Positions 7,156 to 57,131 are shown, counted from the first letter of the stretch. The stretch is 57,131 nt of DNA from a virus (IMGVR_UViG_3300010376_000011:1-57131), one strand, 5' to 3'. Notes: a model not told the origin generated them from the letters alone. Made by a program: numbers and translations.

Positions 7156-7171
7156 CAGCAACAGGCAAAAC

Positions 7172-33638: not shown

Positions 33639-33666
33639 CAGCTTAGAGTGAATTCACGCTAAGCTG
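33639..33666 (+). terminator. Conserved hairpin, copy 3 (degenerate: CAGCTTAGAGTGAATTCACGCTAAGCTG)
   Basis: One stem mismatch and an altered loop; begins 7 nt after the fiber stop; followed by ttaaaag. Confidence 0.5.
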
Positions 33667-33783: not shown

Positions 33784-34677
33784 ATGAAAATCTACTGCGC
33801 CGGAGCCGGAACATTCCCGACGATCACTGAGATGATTGGCGTATTCAGCGGCATTGATGTTTTCAGCAGCTACTTCGACATCAGCCGCCAGCAAGGCAGC
33901 CAAGACATTCTGCCGATGCTGCGCAAGCATGAGCCGCGGTCAGTCGTTTGCGATTCAGGCGCGCACGCTTACTTCTCCGCGATAGGTGGCGCGATCAAGA
34001 GCGCGAGCCCGATCACGCTCGCTGCCAAGCTGCCACCGCCCAAAGAGTATGTCGCAGGCTATGCAGAGTTCATCGTGCGCTCGCTGCATCTTGTCGATGT
34101 GTTCGTCGAGATGGACACAGTGCTCATCCATGGTGAGCGATTCCAGAAATGGCAGCGCGATTGTTTGCTGGAAGCAGTGCGCGGAGATCGCTCGCGCATC
34201 ATGCCGGTCTATCACGCGTGCGAGAAACGAAAGGTCGCGCTCAAGCTGATTGACGAATTCCCGTATGTCGGCATCGAAGGCAAGCGCACGAAGAATCTTT
34301 CGCTCGATGATTACATGCAGATCGTTCACGCTGCCTACAAGAAGAAGTGCAAGGTCCACGCGTTCGCTTCCGTGGACAATGAGTTCCTGACCCGCGTGCC
34401 TTTCTACTCGAGTGATTCATCCAGTTGGAGCATGATTTACCGCAGCGGCGTTTACGTGCAGTTCACAGGGCGCGGCATGACGACGCTGCATCGCTCAGAA
34501 GTGCAGCGGCGATTTCATATCGCGGTCGGCCACGCGCAGTCGCTTGCGAGAGTGACGACAGCGCGCTCGACAGCCTTTCGTTACCGTGCAATGATCCGAA
34601 CTGTAATTGAGCAATATGAGAAGTTTGCGCACTATTTAACAGAGCTATGGAACGCGCGGGGAATAGTCTGGCAGTAG
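33784..34677 (+). CDS. dpdA: DpdA-like DNA-guanine transglycosylase (TGT superfamily)
   Basis: VVCDSGAHAYF, VFVEMD, HAFAS and YSSDSSSWSM motifs as in phage/bacterial DpdA; clustered with folE-queD-queE. Confidence 0.7.
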   Translation: MKIYCAGAGTFPTITEMIGVFSGIDVFSSYFDISRQQGSQDILPMLRKHEPRSVVCDSGAHAYFSAIGGAIKSASPITLAAKLPPPKEYVAGYAEFIVRSLHLVDVFVEMDTVLIHGERFQKWQRDCLLEAVRGDRSRIMPVYHACEKRKVALKLIDEFPYVGIEGKRTKNLSLDDYMQIVHAAYKKKCKVHAFASVDNEFLTRVPFYSSDSSSWSMIYRSGVYVQFTGRGMTTLHRSEVQRRFHIAVGHAQSLARVTTARSTAFRYRAMIRTVIEQYEKFAHYLTELWNARGIVWQ

Positions 34678-35291
34678 GCAATCGGCGTTATCGGATCCTT
34701 CCGCTTGCGCAGATCGTGAAAGCGGACTGGAACTATAAGAAGGAAGACGCTGCGCTGACAAAAAAGCTCGTCGCGAATATCAAGCGCAACGGGCAAGTCG
34801 AGAATGTCCTTGTGCGGCAGTTGAAAGGCGGCCGCTTCGAAATGGTGAACGGCAATCACAGGCACGACGCATTCACTGAGCTCAAGCAGCAGAAAGTCCT
34901 TGTCTGCGATCTTGGCAAGATCAGCAAGGCGGCAGCGATGCGAATCGCGCTTGAGACCAACGAGACAAAATACGAAACGGATTTCGTTCAACTGTCGAAG
35001 CTGCTCAAGGAACTCGGCACAGAGTTCACTGATGACGATCTGCTAGGCACAATGCCGTTCGACTTGCGCGAGCTCCAAGACATTCGCGAGATCACGACCT
35101 TTGAGTGGCCAGAGGGCAGCGGCAAGAAAAGCGCAGGCGGGCAGAGCGCGAACGGCAAAGAGGAAGGAAAGATTCAGATGGTTCTGAACTTCACTTCCAA
35201 AGAGACAAACATCCTCAACGCTTTCTTCACGCGCGCCAACAAGAAGTCTCCCGAAGCTGCAATCATATGGGCAATCCAACACGCGCCATAA
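34647..35291 (+). CDS. ParB N-terminal (ParB/Srx) domain protein, possible DpdB-like partner of DpdA
   Basis: ILPLAQIV..NYKKED..LVANIKRNGQVENVLVRQL..FEMVNGNHRHDAF is the ParBc pattern; overlaps the dpdA 3' end by 31 nt. Confidence 0.7.
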   Translation: MERAGNSLAVGNRRYRILPLAQIVKADWNYKKEDAALTKKLVANIKRNGQVENVLVRQLKGGRFEMVNGNHRHDAFTELKQQKVLVCDLGKISKAAAMRIALETNETKYETDFVQLSKLLKELGTEFTDDDLLGTMPFDLRELQDIREITTFEWPEGSGKKSAGGQSANGKEEGKIQMVLNFTSKETNILNAFFTRANKKSPEAAIIWAIQHAP

Positions 35292-35638
35292 AAGCGAGCA
35301 TCGTCGTTCGCGTCGCGGTGGAAGGTTTTCATCGCTGGCCGAATGCGCCTGACAAGCACGATTACTTGCGCGAGCGACACCGACACCTGTTCGTGATCGA
35401 AGCAGTGAAGCCAGTGACAAGTCTTGATCGCGAAGTCGAGATCATTGAGTTCGGTCGCGAGATTCGACACTTCATCACTCGCAATTCAGGCGCGCCGGCT
35501 GAGTTCGGTCCACTCAGTTGCGAGCAGATTGCAGCGATGCTCGTTCACACGTTTCAGTTGTCGCGCTGCTCGGTGATGGAAGATGGCGAGAACGGAGCTG
35601 AGGTCGTTGTCGATGAAACTGGCCTACCTACCGCTTGA
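35267..35638 (+). CDS. PTPS/QueD-like T-fold protein (divergent paralogue)
   Basis: Internal ATG 35267; VEGFHRWPNAP..RERHRHLFVIEAV..DREVEIIEFGREI..LSCEQIAAML..VMEDGENGAEV parallels the QueD layout, but the CxxxHGH motif is replaced. Confidence 0.45.
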   Translation: MGNPTRAIKASIVVRVAVEGFHRWPNAPDKHDYLRERHRHLFVIEAVKPVTSLDREVEIIEFGREIRHFITRNSGAPAEFGPLSCEQIAAMLVHTFQLSRCSVMEDGENGAEVVVDETGLPTA

Positions 35639-36695
35639 GCCTTATCGCGAGCGTTACACCGAGATGCTTTGCGATTGGACGACTGCGCGCTGGCGTGATC
35701 GGTGCGAAGTGCTCGCGATCTACGCGGGCGATAAGTTCGATGGTGACATTGAGACAGGCGTTGTGCTCGATGCTCATCGCCGCTGCCACTGGGCACTGAC
35801 TCAGATGGCGGCGCTCATCAAAGACTTGAAAGAAGGCGTGAAATATGACGCGATCTACATCGACGATCTTTTTCATCCTGGCTTCGAATCGTTGCCTTAC
35901 ATCTTCGCGCAGCAGAAAGAGCGCGCGCCGAAACTGTTCACGCGCAACTGGGCGCAATCCGTTGACGAAGATGATTTCACTTTTCCAATGCGCAGATGGA
36001 TGAGGCACTACGAAAGATTAGTCGATCAGGTCACGGCAGGAATTTTCTGCGCTTCCACTTGTCATGCTCAAGCGATGCGCATCGCGGGACTCAAAGGCGC
36101 GCAAGTTGTCGGGCTTCCATTCGACAGCGAAGATGTTCGCAGTCGTCGTCGCGGTGCAATCGCGCGCAGCGACAAGCCGCGCGTGATCTTTTCGTCGCGA
36201 TGGGACAAGGAGAAGCAGCCTGACTTCTTCATGCGGGTCGTGCGCGAGTGCGGCGAGCAGTTTGAGTTTCTTGTCTGCACTGGCGCAACGGAGCTCCGCA
36301 GCAATTGGTCTTCGCTGATCGACGATGCTCGCGATCTTGAGCAGGACGGACTGCTGAGGATCCGAACAGGATGCCGCAAGCTGGATTACTACAGCGAGCT
36401 TGCAGGCGCGTCGGTGCAATTCAACTGCGCGCTGCAAGATTACGTCGCATTCACGACACTGGAAGCTTCCGCGTTCGGAGTGCCGACGCTCGCGCCCGCA
36501 TACAAATCCTTTCCAGAAGTTCTGCACAATGATGAGCGGCGCTTATTCGTGCCATGGTCAATCACTGATGCAGTGAGCAAACTGAAAGTGCTCGCTACTA
36601 CCGACGTATTGAATGAATGGGAGATCGCGGCGCCGTCAGTCGAGCATGACAAAACTCTCGACAAGATGTTAGGTTGGATGAAAACGATATGCTGA
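35613..36695 (+). CDS. GT-B fold glycosyltransferase-like protein (GT4-like C-terminal half)
   Basis: Internal ATG 35613; KPRVIFSSRWDKEKQPDFFMRVV..FEFLVCTG..VQFNCALQDYVAFTTLEASAFGVPTLAP resembles the Glycos_transf_1 core (E..fG...lEA...G.P). Confidence 0.6.
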   Translation: MKLAYLPLEPYRERYTEMLCDWTTARWRDRCEVLAIYAGDKFDGDIETGVVLDAHRRCHWALTQMAALIKDLKEGVKYDAIYIDDLFHPGFESLPYIFAQQKERAPKLFTRNWAQSVDEDDFTFPMRRWMRHYERLVDQVTAGIFCASTCHAQAMRIAGLKGAQVVGLPFDSEDVRSRRRGAIARSDKPRVIFSSRWDKEKQPDFFMRVVRECGEQFEFLVCTGATELRSNWSSLIDDARDLEQDGLLRIRTGCRKLDYYSELAGASVQFNCALQDYVAFTTLEASAFGVPTLAPAYKSFPEVLHNDERRLFVPWSITDAVSKLKVLATTDVLNEWEIAAPSVEHDKTLDKMLGWMKTIC

Positions 36696-37132
36696 CCTGC
36701 ACGAAGACTTACATCGACATTCCTTTCGCGCATCGCGCGCACAGACATGATGGACACTGCGCGCTCATTCACGGGCACAATTGGAAATTCGAAATCACCT
36801 TCGCTGCTCCTATCACTGATGAGTGCGGGTTCGTGATGGATTTCGGAAAGCTGCAAAGCTTGAAGGAAGAAATCACTCGCACCTTCGATCACAAGCTTGT
36901 GCTCAATTCCAGTGACCCGCTCGCGCCAGAGCTCGCGCATTTTCTCGTTTCAAAGAAGATCGGCAACACCACGCTTGTGCCTGATTGCTCCTGCGAAGGA
37001 ATCGCGAAGCTGATTTACAAAATGGCTGACCGCATCGCGCGAGAGGAAACACTGGGGCGCGCGCACGTTCAGCGCGTCACCGTATTCGAAGACTCAAAGA
37101 ATCTCGCGACCTATGACGCTCAAGGTGAATGA
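36689..37132 (+). CDS. queD: 6-carboxy-5,6,7,8-tetrahydropterin synthase
   Basis: FAHRAHRHDGHCALIHGHNWKFEITF..GFVMDFGKL..FDHKLVLN..CSCEGIA..VTVFEDS; ATG 36689 (the track starts at TTG 36674). Confidence 0.85.
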   Translation: MLTCTKTYIDIPFAHRAHRHDGHCALIHGHNWKFEITFAAPITDECGFVMDFGKLQSLKEEITRTFDHKLVLNSSDPLAPELAHFLVSKKIGNTTLVPDCSCEGIAKLIYKMADRIAREETLGRAHVQRVTVFEDSKNLATYDAQGE

Positions 37133-37694
37133 AATCTTTTACTCGATTCAGGGCGAAGGCGCGCGCGCGGGACAACCTTCGATCTTCATCCGGCTGAGCG
37201 GGTGCGATCTCACCTGCAACTTTTGCGACACAGAATTTGCGAGCGGCGCAGCGATGGCGCTCGACGCGATCAGAGATCACATCAAGCAGTGGTCATGTCG
37301 CTGGATTGTCTGGACTGGCGGCGAGCCGATGCTGCAACTATGCGATGCAGCGATTGAGTATTTCCGCGAGCTTGGCTACAAGCAGGCCATCGAGAGCAAC
37401 GGCAATCACAAAATACCGCGCGCGATTGACTGGATCGTCGTCAGCCCAAAAGTTGCTGAGCATGTCATGAGAAAAAACTTCCCTGATGGAGTCGATGAAT
37501 TGCGCTACGTAAGGCATTGCGGCCACATGAACGTTCCTGAGCCAGCAGTCGAAGCGCAGCATTACTACCTCTCTCCGATCTTCGACGGCAATACACCTAA
37601 CGAAGCGAACGTCAAGCATTGCCTCAAACTGATACTCGCGAACCCGCAATGGAAACTAAGCCTGCAACTGCACAAGCTCCTGCGCGTTCTGTAA
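37113..37694 (+). CDS. queE: 7-carboxy-7-deazaguanine synthase (radical SAM)
   Basis: [45 protein letters not shown]. Confidence 0.9.
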
Positions 37695-38527
37695 CGTGGC
37701 TTGAGCTCATTGACGAAGTCGATTCGCTTGATCGGCGATGGACCTATTACGGCATCCCGCGCGGCGGCACGATCGTTGCGGGTGTCGCTGCTGCGCGTGG
37801 ATTCAAGATTACTTCGGAGCCGGAGCGCGCTGATATGTTACTCGATGATGTTGTCGATTCAGGAGCGACGCGGAGTAAGTGGCTCGTCAGGTTTCCAGCG
37901 AAAGGATTTCGCGCGCTGTATCAGCGCACCGACAAGTGGCTCGTCTTTCCGTGGGAGAGTTCTTACGCCGCGGCAGCGCAAGAAGTCGTCACGCGGCAAC
38001 TTGAATTGATTGGCGAAGACGCAGCGCGGGAAGGTCTGCGCGATACACCTGAGCGCGTCGTGCGATCATGGCAGGAGCTCTATGCGGGCTACAGGATGAA
38101 GCCGGAAGATGTTTTGAATGCGCACTTCGCGCGCGACGATTACGATCAGATGATTGTCTGTCGCGGCATTCAGTTCTACTCGACCTGCGAGCATCACCTG
38201 CAACCTTTCTTCGGGCGCGCTCATATCGGCTACCTGCCTGACCACTGCGTGGTCGGACTCAGTAAGCTCGCGCGACTCGTTGACGTATTCGCCCGCCGAT
38301 TGCAGATACAGGAACGCCTCACGGAACAGATCGCCGCTGCGCTGCAAACGCACACGCGACCAAAAGGCGTCGGCGTAATCATTGAGGCGCAGCACTTCTG
38401 TATGATGTGTCGCGGCGTGCAGAAACAAACGAGCTCAATGGTGACCAGCGCGCTCAAAGGTTGCTTCCGCGATGCAGCAGTGCGCGCTGAATTTCTGAAC
38501 CTTCTCGCGCAAGGCCAATCAGCTTAG
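37649..38527 (+). CDS. folE: Fusion protein: N-terminal Gpt-like phosphoribosyltransferase domain plus GTP cyclohydrolase I
   Basis: N-terminus [48 protein letters not shown] (Gpt-like); C-terminus [32 protein letters not shown]; ATG 37649 (the track starts at TTG 37619); overlaps queE. Confidence 0.85.
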
Positions 38528-38547
38528 CGTGAAAACACGCTAAGCTG
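38520..38547 (+). terminator. Conserved 28-bp hairpin, copy 4, followed by TTTTCTC
   Basis: Perfect 12-bp stem, AAAA loop; contains the folE stop codon (TAG 38525-38527). Confidence 0.65.
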
Positions 38548-41991: not shown

Positions 41992-42702
41992 ATGCCACAG
42001 AAGGTAATGAAGATACATCCGCTCTGCCGAATGTTCAGTCAGATCGCGCCACTCGGAAAAGACGAGAAGGCCGAAATGGTTGCTGACATTAAGGAGAACG
42101 GAATCAAGGTGCCTCTACTTGTTAACAAGAAGAAGGACACCATCTACGACGGCTATACGCGGTGGGGCATCGCGTATGATCTCAAGCTCGCACCGAAAGA
42201 CATTCCAATGGAAGTCTTTTCGGGCACTGAGGAAGAGATCGAAGCAGAAATCTTGTCCCGCAATCTGTTCCGGCGCCATATGTCGGACAGTGAGCGCGCG
42301 GCACTCGTTTCGAAGATCCTCGGCCCAGTCGCTGAGAAGGAAGCGAAAGAGCGTCAGAGCGCAGCGGGCAGCTTCGGTGACAAGAGCAAAGGCAAGGGCA
42401 CAGGGAAAGGCAAACGGGTTGCTGAGCTCGCGAAGAAGGCGGGCGTCAGTGAGCACAAGATGGCGCAAGCTGAGCGCGCACGTAAGGCCGGAATGATTGA
42501 TGATGTGCTGTCGAAAAAGACCACGCTCCGTAAGGCAAGCGAAAAAGGCAAAGGCGGAAAGCGCAAGCCAGCGAAGGAACTTTCTTTCGCAGATGCGCTC
42601 TACAAGAAGTGGACCGCCTTCGTCAATCGCATTGACCATCCGAAGCGACGCCAAGCATTGGAACTGATCGCTGGCTGGTGCACAGGAAAGAAGCCCGCGT
42701 AA
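41992..42702 (+). CDS. ParB-like nuclease-domain protein with a C-terminal HTH region
   Basis: IHPLCRMF..EMVADIKENGIKVPLLV....IYDGYTRWGIAYDL is the ParBc pattern; AGAAGGAG RBS. Confidence 0.8.
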   Translation: MPQKVMKIHPLCRMFSQIAPLGKDEKAEMVADIKENGIKVPLLVNKKKDTIYDGYTRWGIAYDLKLAPKDIPMEVFSGTEEEIEAEILSRNLFRRHMSDSERAALVSKILGPVAEKEAKERQSAAGSFGDKSKGKGTGKGKRVAELAKKAGVSEHKMAQAERARKAGMIDDVLSKKTTLRKASEKGKGGKRKPAKELSFADALYKKWTAFVNRIDHPKRRQALELIAGWCTGKKPA

Positions 42703-56942: not shown

Positions 56943-57131
56943 ATGCCAAATTGGATCAGTTGGTGGAATCCGAAGTCAGGCAAACGCACTTCATGCTCGC
57001 ATCTCGTCAACACAGGATACAAAGGGCGCACAGAATGTGGTCTGCCTGTGAGCTCGCTGATCGCGCCGGCTGGAAGGCTGCCGCGCTGCAAAGCGTGCCT
57101 CAACTCTTACGATAGAACAATCAAAAGGAGA
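56943..57131 (+). CDS. Small Cys/His-rich (zinc-ribbon-like) protein, 63 codons, cut by the window end; stop lies at nt 124-126 after circularisation
   Basis: GAAAGGAG RBS; MPNWISWWNPKSGKRTSCSHLVN..ECGLP..RCKACLNSY. Confidence 0.5.
   Translation, partial: MPNWISWWNPKSGKRTSCSHLVNTGYKGRTECGLPVSSLIAPAGRLPRCKACLNSYDRTIKRR
57009..57131. repeat. Terminal direct repeat, second copy (identical to 1-123)
   Basis: Direct comparison of both ends. Confidence 0.95.

Follow-up and report, generated by a model that had tools for sequence, protein, structure and literature searches.

How can a phage equip its DNA with a 7-deazaguanine base when it encodes no QueC? This question is raised by an island of seven genes on the viral contig IMGVR_UViG_3300010376_000011, of which the whole 57,131 nucleotides (nt), called the window below, were analysed. 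On the purine side, the counter-defences known from phage DNA are mainly 7-deazaguanines, of which eight derivatives have been described. A preliminary description had read the genes as an island for DNA modification by 7-deazaguanine that includes an enzyme of the DpdA family, and had argued that the missing QueC leaves the phage either to borrow the QueC of its host or to insert a new base derived from 7-carboxy-7-deazaguanine (CDG). The first part of this was borne out, whereas the second was not. The island very probably encodes a DpdL-type 7-deazaguanine pathway that operates without QueC, and we find it reasonably likely that it represents such a module extended by a glycosyltransferase (GT) step.

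The layout of the island was reproduced in full. The seven co-directional open reading frames (ORFs) were found on the plus strand at the coordinates given earlier (33784-38547) with every quoted motif present, and they lie, as had been stated, between copies 3 and 4 of a repeated hairpin, at 33639 and 38520. Nucleotides 1-123 of the window are 100% identical to nucleotides 57009-57131. The contig therefore looks circularly closed or provided with a short direct terminal repeat, i.e., like a complete genome of approximately 57.0 kb, as the preliminary description had assumed. Since the window is also the entire 57,131-nt JGI record, absence from the window is probably absence from the genome. 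The island had no match by megablast among 50,697 phage records, and the terminase of the phage showed at most 44% identity to that of any cultured phage; therefore, the phage has no close cultured relative.

The reported lack of QueC was confirmed by all searches. A hidden Markov model (HMM) seeded with 7 sequences, namely the E. coli QueC and six QueC or Gat-QueC proteins of phages or archaeal viruses, reached a best E-value of only 1.3 against all six frames of the window, tblastn returned no QueC match in the window, and the SGGxDS PP-loop motif was present in none of the six frames. As controls, the same HMM detected the QueC of Bacillus phage BCD7, which was one of its own seeds, at an E-value of 8.7e-78 and the independent Gat-QueC of Xanthomonas phage PhiXhv-12 at 4.6e-45. 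Across about 180 related loci with DpdL or the GT it found no QueC, whereas 313 GenBank phage records had a QueC match. A QueC hidden elsewhere in the genome was thus ruled out by HMM, tblastn, motif search and the survey of related loci. QueF and ArcS, also said to be missing, were not found in the apparently complete genome either.

The absence of QueC is accounted for by the second T-fold protein of the island (35267-35638), previously taken for a divergent QueD-like enzyme that would make an unusual derivative. By sequence, this protein is DpdL, the published candidate CDG decarboxylase. In Cellulophaga phage phiST, dG is fully (100%) replaced by 2'-deoxy-7-deazaguanosine (dDG) (Cui et al. 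2023, NAR, PMC10516641). The phiST DNA holds dDG and no dCDG, the deoxynucleoside of CDG, which does occur in nature, and the QueD paralogue DpdL (CGPG_00067) was proposed there to decarboxylate CDG. DpdL is defined by the motif LxxxHRHxF, which replaces the CxxxHGH of QueD, and it is found in phages that have DpdA, FolE, QueD and QueE but lack QueC (PMC10516641). The window protein is 40% identical to CGPG_00067 over 110 amino acids (aa) (E 2e-24), matches the DpdL HMM at 9.2e-44, and reads LRERHRHLF at the homologous position, an exact match to the signature. Residues H38, R39, H40 and F42 are invariant in 10 family members, and an alignment with homologues from many phages revealed invariant H, HRH, SCE and ED residues. 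The ORF also matches phrog_17812, a PHROG with unknown function (E 7.6e-21), and the predicted protein is acidic (pI 5.8). As in about 180 related loci, DpdL is encoded in the window together with FolE, QueD, QueE and DpdA and without QueC.

QueC is unnecessary in such a pathway because DpdL would turn CDG into 7-deazaguanine. Moreover, dDG and dCDG were both added to the described set in 2023, and a missing QueC thus calls for neither a host QueC nor a new base. Complete replacement by 7-deazaguanine has also been reported for Vibrio phage VP1 (bioRxiv 2025.10.29.685425). The core of the island (FolE, QueD, QueE, DpdL and DpdA, no QueC) is thus a route to dDG that was already published in 2023. 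The identity of DpdL had been overlooked in the preliminary description, as had the parallel between the ParB-domain protein and DpdB that is discussed below.

The GT gene is embedded between dpdL and queD, its start overlapping the end of dpdL. The AlphaFold2 (AF2) model of the protein (pLDDT 94.5) displays the two Rossmann domains of a GT-B fold, and Foldseek matched it to the retaining GT4 enzymes MshA, BshA, PimA, SenB and glycogen synthase with E-values of 1e-14 to 1e-12 and TM-scores of about 0.7; the GT-B label given earlier is thus supported by structure, with Pfam scores below threshold. Two invariant residues, R196 and K201, correspond in the alignment to the donor-phosphate motif GRLDxxKxP of the GT4 enzyme WlaC, and a second motif, D276-x7-E284, is EX7E-like by inspection alone. 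The N-terminal domain contains many invariant aromatic and acidic residues. Many close homologues carry precomputed PF00534 or PF13692 matches. When the GT and DpdA profiles were compared with PDB sequences nothing significant was obtained, and only the fold comparison was informative.

The GT family is large and essentially confined to viruses. It comprises 458 clusters at 50% identity with E-values of at most 1e-30 among 1.84 billion representative proteins, and relatives were present in at least 412 IMG/VR contigs. Among 185,579 bacterial and archaeal species genomes, the family occurred in 6 contigs only, all from metagenome-assembled genomes (MAGs). In five of these six it is accompanied by DpdL or other genes of the same clusters, as would be expected of viral contigs that had been binned into MAGs. 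On these numbers a cellular origin of the GT was rejected. In the literature, we found no paper linking a glycosyltransferase or phosphoribosyltransferase (PRTase) to phage 7-deazaguanine or DpdL; the terms glycosyl, ParB and phosphoribosyl appear nowhere in the text of PMC10516641, a statement that leaves aside its supplementary tables, which list DpdL phages.

The association of the GT with DpdL was assessed in 80 viral loci chosen by the DpdL profile and 89 chosen by the GT, in which the ORFs were clustered de novo and searched with custom HMMs. DpdL was present in 84 of the 89 GT-selected loci (94%), and in 52 of 55 where the flank was at least 3 kb. Conversely, 46 of the 80 DpdL-selected loci contained the GT, and its frequency differed between types of transglycosylase: it was found in none of the 14 phiST-type (DpdA3) loci, in 32 of 45 DpdA1-like loci (absent from 13) and in all 13 DpdL-selected loci with a TGT-like enzyme of about 416 aa (cluster c9). 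Where DpdL and GT share a strand (155 pairs), the GT follows downstream of DpdL at a distance of at most 150 bp in 60 cases; in other loci they are separated by one gene, often for a radical-SAM enzyme. The linkage extends to the cultured phages Synechococcus BUCT-ZZ01, Burkholderia BCSR5 and Xanthomonas X1, despite differing gene orders, and in Sinorhizobium phage Phosso the tblastn matches of DpdL and GT are 30 bp apart. In Acidovorax phage ACP17, named as a DpdL phage in PMC10516641, gp123 is TGT-like, gp124 is the GT and gp125 is DpdL, and in Pseudomonas jumbo phage PA5oct the TGT-like protein, GT, DpdL and PRTase are gp168, gp167, gp166 and gp163, respectively. The resistance of PA5oct DNA to several restriction enzymes follows a pattern that suggests modified G. 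We conclude that the GT accompanies the DpdL pathway robustly, as an accessory that has apparently not been reported.

Some further genes accompany the pair. The c9 proteins (e.g., L011:3843-5093, ACP17 gp123 and PA5oct gp168) carry FGDSGGFQ, TDSSSP and a Cys cluster. A radical-SAM-SPASM gene is located between DpdL and GT at 5951-6958 of L025, a 56.7-kb relative of the window phage, and radical-SAM proteins of clusters c19 (about 465 aa) and c28 (about 259 aa) occupy this place in loci such as L058, L061, L066, L029 and L032; one radical-SAM protein of such loci contains a CGCNCTFC motif. These inserted enzymes suggest further tailoring chemistry in the same pathway. Cluster c8 (about 147 aa; e.g., L010:1581-2024, L016:7913-8335 and L197:2414-2872), which has no Pfam match, adjoins DpdL and GT in about 20 loci and is absent from the window. 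Finally, in Xanthomonas phage PhiXhv-12 (L199, 4618-7852), Gat-QueC precedes a BshB-like 'GlcNAc-malate deacetylase' and a more distantly related GT4, which matches the GT HMM at an E-value of 1.1e-14. Recalling the BshA/BshB pair, this arrangement may be another sugar-decorated deazaguanine system.

Table 1. Features of the 7-deazaguanine island in the window.
Feature	Position	Strand	Remarks
Hairpin copy 3	33639..33666	+	28 nt, CAGCTTAGAGTGAATTCACGCTAAGCTG; upstream border of the island
DpdA-family DNA-guanine transglycosylase (predicted)	33784..34677	+	297 aa, pI 9.4; PHROG 887
ParB N-terminal-domain protein	34647..35291	+	214 aa, pI 9.2; phrog_723
DpdL	35105/35267..35638	+	123 aa from the ATG at 35267; QueD paralogue, proposed CDG decarboxylase
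GT4-like GT-B glycosyltransferase (predicted)	35583/35613..36695	+	360 aa, pI 5.8; weak Glycos_transf_1 match
QueD	36674..37132	+	6-carboxy-tetrahydropterin synthase; canonical CxxxHGH; PF01242 E 2.4e-25; TIGR03367 5.4e-18
QueE	37113..37694	+	radical-SAM CDG synthase; phrog_2076 E 8.2e-32; TIGR04508 1.8e-40
PRTase-like N-terminal domain fused to FolE	37619..37978	+	minimal, about 120 aa; activity uncertain
FolE (GTP cyclohydrolase I) domain	37979..38527	+	PF01227 E 6.6e-71, residues 121-296; NF006825 1.6e-75
Hairpin copy 4	38520..38547	+	followed by a T-run, terminator-like; downstream border of the island

The base made by this pathway would be inserted by the transglycosylase, which, judged by profile comparison, is a divergent DpdA1-like enzyme and not a DpdA3. 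The protein at 33784 matched PHROG 887, 'queuine tRNA-ribosyltransferase', at an E-value of 5.9e-21, and its AF2 model (pLDDT 88) is a TGT-type TIM barrel whose best match in the PDB is the archaeosine TGT 1iq8 (E 8.9e-6, TMq 0.53), the remaining matches being generic TIM barrels. The earlier TGT-like reading thus stood in PHROG and in fold, while neither Pfam, including TGT PF01702, nor NCBIfam returned a match; the phage enzymes DpdA2, DpdA3 and DpdA4 are likewise detected only by more sensitive searches, e.g., HHpred. The family HMM matched DpdA1 of phages CAjan, SE1 (9g-like) and Iggy with E-values of 1e-12 to 2e-14, and hhalign gave probabilities of 97.7% against DpdA1 and 4.8% against DpdA3. 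For this assignment the clean A2 profile was used, and the c5 HMM and alignment, in which one fusion protein mixed DpdA with ParB, were set aside. With the DpdA3 of phiST (CGPG_00065) no similarity was obtained by BLASTP and no match by the family HMM; membership in DpdA3 was rejected on the BLASTP and hhalign results. D57 (VCDSGAH) and D211 (SSDSSSW) are invariant across 14 DpdA homologues, and from the position of the motifs they would be the equivalents of the TGT catalytic residues. The enzyme has 16 clusters of close homologues, and tblastn against phages gave a single match, in Bacillus phage BCD7, with 26% identity.

The gene downstream of dpdA, which overlaps its end, encodes a protein matching phrog_723 at an E-value of 2.3e-21 and carrying GNHRHDA, a motif of the GxxRxxA type, as read from the sequence. 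A ParB gene adjoining DpdA recurs in related loci. At L029:10040-11563, a 507-aa fusion protein joins a DpdA domain (E 2.1e-15, residues 1-226) to a weakly matching ParB domain (E 9e-4, residues 277-380), and this natural fusion supports a functional partnership of the two proteins. In bacteria, DpdA requires the ParB-like ATPase DpdB to insert preQ0 (PMC10164549). By analogy, the ParB-domain protein may be a functional counterpart of DpdB without belonging to the DpdB family, and we give it an even chance of being a helper of DpdA, acting as its putative NTPase partner. The basic pI of both DpdA and the ParB protein fits DNA binding.

For QueD, QueE and FolE, the labels of the preliminary description agreed with clear family matches (Table 1). 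The PRTase-FolE fusion was retained in part: FolE is clearly matched in profile searches, and its N-terminus shows two PRTase motifs and weak similarity to PRTases, without a Pfam match for that part. The N-terminus was related by BLASTP (E 7e-7) to a 130-aa protein of L016, which itself matches PF00156 weakly, and it aligned with the free-standing minimal PRTase of BUCT-ZZ01 (3e-13), while the phage PRTase HMM scored 13.4 bits, at two short motif stretches alone. In alignment with Pfam-positive phage PRTases, it displays a phosphoribosyl pyrophosphate (PRPP)-binding acidic loop followed by D-S/T-G-x-T, and it also contains WLVFPWE. The same fusion occurs in the relative L027 with a clearer PRTase signal (PRT HMM E 2.3e-8). 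PRTase genes are present in 33 of the 89 GT-selected and 16 of the 80 DpdL-selected loci, and both BUCT-ZZ01 and PA5oct carry them in their DpdL clusters. Across the island, NCBIfam and PADLOC gave no DpdA-, DpdB- or other Dpd-specific match.

The 28-nt hairpin that borders the island occurs six times in the window, against 0 copies expected by chance. The near-identical copies, at 7171, 21659, 33639, 38520, 42719 and 53481, are all on the plus strand and form a perfect hairpin with the arms CAGCTTAGCGTG-NNNN-CACGCTAAGCTG, whose loop reads TTTT in two copies and AAAA or AATT in the other four. All six sit at boundaries of gene blocks. They probably act as terminators of operons or as regulatory hairpins. 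A PHROG scan of 19 of the larger ORFs in the replication region (40.7-56.8 kb) identified a helicase, an Erf-like annealing protein, an exonuclease, an endonuclease VII and a replication initiator, and it revealed no DNA polymerase, MazG, dNMP kinase or ribonucleotide reductase (RNR). The phage presumably replicates using the host polymerase. A second ParB-like protein (41992-42702, plus strand; phrog_4715, E 4.9e-12) is encoded beyond the island, in the region of the early and replication genes.

The island resembles several known systems without being identical to any of them. Like phiST (PMC10516641), it combines FolE, QueD, QueE, DpdL and a DNA transglycosylase and lacks QueC, but phiST uses DpdA3, has MazG-like and dUTPase-like neighbours and carries no GT, ParB or PRTase, whereas the window has a DpdA1-like enzyme together with ParB, a GT4 glycosyltransferase and the PRTase-FolE fusion. 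With the DpdA1 phages (Escherichia CAjan and 9g, Pseudomonas Iggy) it shares a remotely homologous transglycosylase (HMM E about 1e-14) and presumably a post-replicative exchange. These phages, in contrast, encode QueC or Gat-QueC, insert preQ0 or G+ and have neither DpdL nor GT, and the DpdA of the window is related to theirs at low identity, on the PHROG and profile level only. The bacterial DpdA/DpdB module of Salmonella Montevideo (PMC10164549) likewise pairs a TGT-family transglycosylase with a ParB-fold protein. The ParB of the window, however, has GxxRxxA and not DGQQR, there is no DpdC, and the substrate would not be preQ0.

Closer counterparts of the GT arrangement are found in ACP17 and PA5oct, where DpdL and a structural homologue of the GT (TM 0.78-0.82 for ACP17) are located among QueD, FolE, QueE and a transglycosylase; in PA5oct the cluster likewise includes the PRTase. 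They differ from the window in their TGT-like enzyme of about 420-540 aa (c9), in the order TGT-GT-DpdL and in a GT identity of about 17-25%. A chemical parallel is provided by huimycin and dapiramicin, for which a GT containing a GT4-type domain (PF13439) uses UDP-GlcNAc to glycosylate a 7-deazapurine derived from preQ0. This belongs to actinomycete secondary metabolism, with an O-methylated preQ0 as acceptor and no DNA involved, and the likeness to the window GT is one of description only. By analogy, the huimycin GT can nevertheless be regarded as a precedent for sugar transfer onto a 7-deazapurine scaffold.

The following scheme would fit these data. FolE, QueD and QueE convert GTP to CDG, a part of the route established through their homology with enzymes already characterised, and DpdL, a QueD paralogue without the catalytic Cys, would convert CDG to 7-deazaguanine, as suggested by the literature. 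The basic DpdA1-related transglycosylase would then act on phage DNA after its replication and put the deazaguanine base in the place of guanine, assisted by the basic ParB-fold protein in the role of bacterial DpdB. As no polymerase, MazG or nucleotide kinase was found, the modification is most likely post-replicative. The acidic GT would move a sugar from a host nucleoside diphosphate sugar onto the deazaguanine moiety or a soluble precursor, and the final base would be a glycosylated derivative instead of plain dDG. Action on the soluble base is favoured over action on DNA because GT and DpdL are acidic, unlike DpdA and ParB, because their genes overlap, and because of the many invariant aromatic and acidic residues in the N-terminal domain of the GT. 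The PRTase domain may salvage the guanine released by DpdA (guanine + PRPP -> GMP), which would be returned via GMP to the GTP feeding FolE and would pull the exchange forward; it may also merely bind PRPP. That the GT decorates deazaguanine at all is put forward tentatively, at somewhat less than an even chance. The fuller proposal, in which the DpdL-linked GT4 attaches a sugar to 7-deazaguanine or to CDG or deazaguanine (DG) as its precursor and thereby gives rise to glycosylated 7-deazaguanine phage DNA, is possible but a shade more speculative. The earlier suggestion that the GT takes part in making a derivative beyond the known set remains plausible and was strengthened by the comparative data.

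A number of observations speak against this scheme. The decarboxylase activity of DpdL is a proposal, even for the phiST prototype, and expression of dpdL and dpdA of phiST or ACP17 in E. coli yielded no dDG (PMC10516641). 7-Deazaguanine offers no obvious O-nucleophile or hydroxyl for a retaining GT4 enzyme, which makes any acceptor atom speculative, whether the sugar would be placed on N2, be joined to C7 as a C-glycoside or form an ester with CDG. The GT itself scores 20-23 bits (E about 1e-4) with Pfam Glycos_transf_1 and Glyco_trans_1_4, for which the cut-offs are 26-27, and it could act on something unrelated to DNA. The restriction resistance of PA5oct is the sole chemistry hint for the GT-bearing phages. 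As to the ParB label of the preliminary description, phrog_723 sustains it, while Pfam ParB_N at 24.6 bits falls just under the gathering threshold; in addition, the DGQQR motif and the SspE-like C-terminal domain of DpdB are not present in the 214-aa protein, and it had no DpdB-specific match in NCBIfam or PADLOC. Finally, the N-terminal 120 residues of the FolE fusion had no match in Pfam at an E-value of 0.05, i.e., no PF00156 domain, and the PRTase domain is truncated, being about 25 residues shorter than its free-standing homologues.

In a rival explanation, the phage DNA would contain plain dDG, as in phiST, and the GT would work outside base chemistry, on a protein, the host surface or another metabolite, or serve as a non-catalytic partner of DpdL. 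dDG is the sole product shown for a DpdL system, DG has no obvious sugar acceptor, and the lack of the GT from 13 of 45 DpdA1-like loci and all DpdA3 loci indicates that DG-type modification in general can do without it. On the other hand, the co-occurrence of a virus-specific GT with DpdL in 94% of the GT-selected loci, in unrelated phage lineages and in differing gene orders, would be difficult to account for if the two did not share a pathway. The position of the gene between dpdL and queD, overlapping the former, and the conserved donor-site motif also speak against a GT outside base chemistry. We therefore regard plain dDG as unlikely, though worth keeping in mind. Alternatively, DpdL might not be a decarboxylase in the systems that have a GT, and the base would then be CDG or a derivative, e.g., one with a sugar bound to the 7-carboxylate as a glycosyl ester or through an amide. 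The carboxylate is a chemically available acceptor, dCDG is a natural compound, and ACP17, whose dpdL and dpdA gave no dDG in E. coli, has its GT between DpdA and DpdL. This explanation appears quite improbable, as the DpdL of the window shares its signature residues with the phiST protein, whose phage has dDG and no dCDG; also, GT4 enzymes do not typically form acyl-glycosides.

Least credible are two routes that leave DpdL aside or bypass the exchange of bases in DNA. Use of a host QueC and insertion of preQ0 (giving dPreQ0) has in its favour that many bacteria encode QueC and that DpdA1 enzymes such as those of CAjan and 9g use preQ0. Yet the phage encodes DpdL, none of the about 180 related loci has a QueC although phage QueC genes are well represented in GenBank, and bulk CDG production reliant on a host QueC leaves the strict linkage with DpdL unexplained; we consider this very improbable. 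Similarly slight is the chance of a pre-replicative route at the nucleotide level, in which the PRTase would make a CDG or DG nucleotide (cf. TubE) that is reduced, phosphorylated and incorporated by a polymerase. The recurrence of PRTases in DpdL clusters, including those of BUCT-ZZ01 and PA5oct, and the pairing of CDG with a PRTase in tubercidin clusters would agree with it, but the window has DpdA, its replication genes revealed no polymerase, kinase, MazG or RNR, the PRTase domain of its FolE fusion is truncated and hard to recognise as such, and guanine salvage, which we prefer, explains a Gpt-like PRTase equally well.

While the core of the island adds nothing to the list of derivatives, the GT is the novelty left over. 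More than half of the sampled DpdL loci carry this dedicated, virus-specific GT, and some also have a radical-SAM enzyme and a PRTase. The DpdL phages of known chemistry compared here (the phiST group) are without the GT; Vibrio phage VP1 lies outside this comparison. The presence of the GT may explain why dpdL and dpdA of ACP17 failed to yield dDG in E. coli. The possible glycosylated purine is directly searchable by mass spectrometry in the cultured GT-bearing phages. If the proposal is true, hundreds of uncultivated phages together with ACP17, PA5oct, X1, BCSR5, BUCT-ZZ01 and Phosso would carry glycosylated 7-deazaguanine. A glycosylated base would have a bearing on nanopore base-calling of environmental phage DNA and on enzymatic DNA-labelling tools, and it would matter for the evasion of restriction and of glycosylases (Dag, END-type defences). 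It would represent an undescribed class of purine hypermodification, which in some lineages would be tailored further by radical-SAM enzymes.

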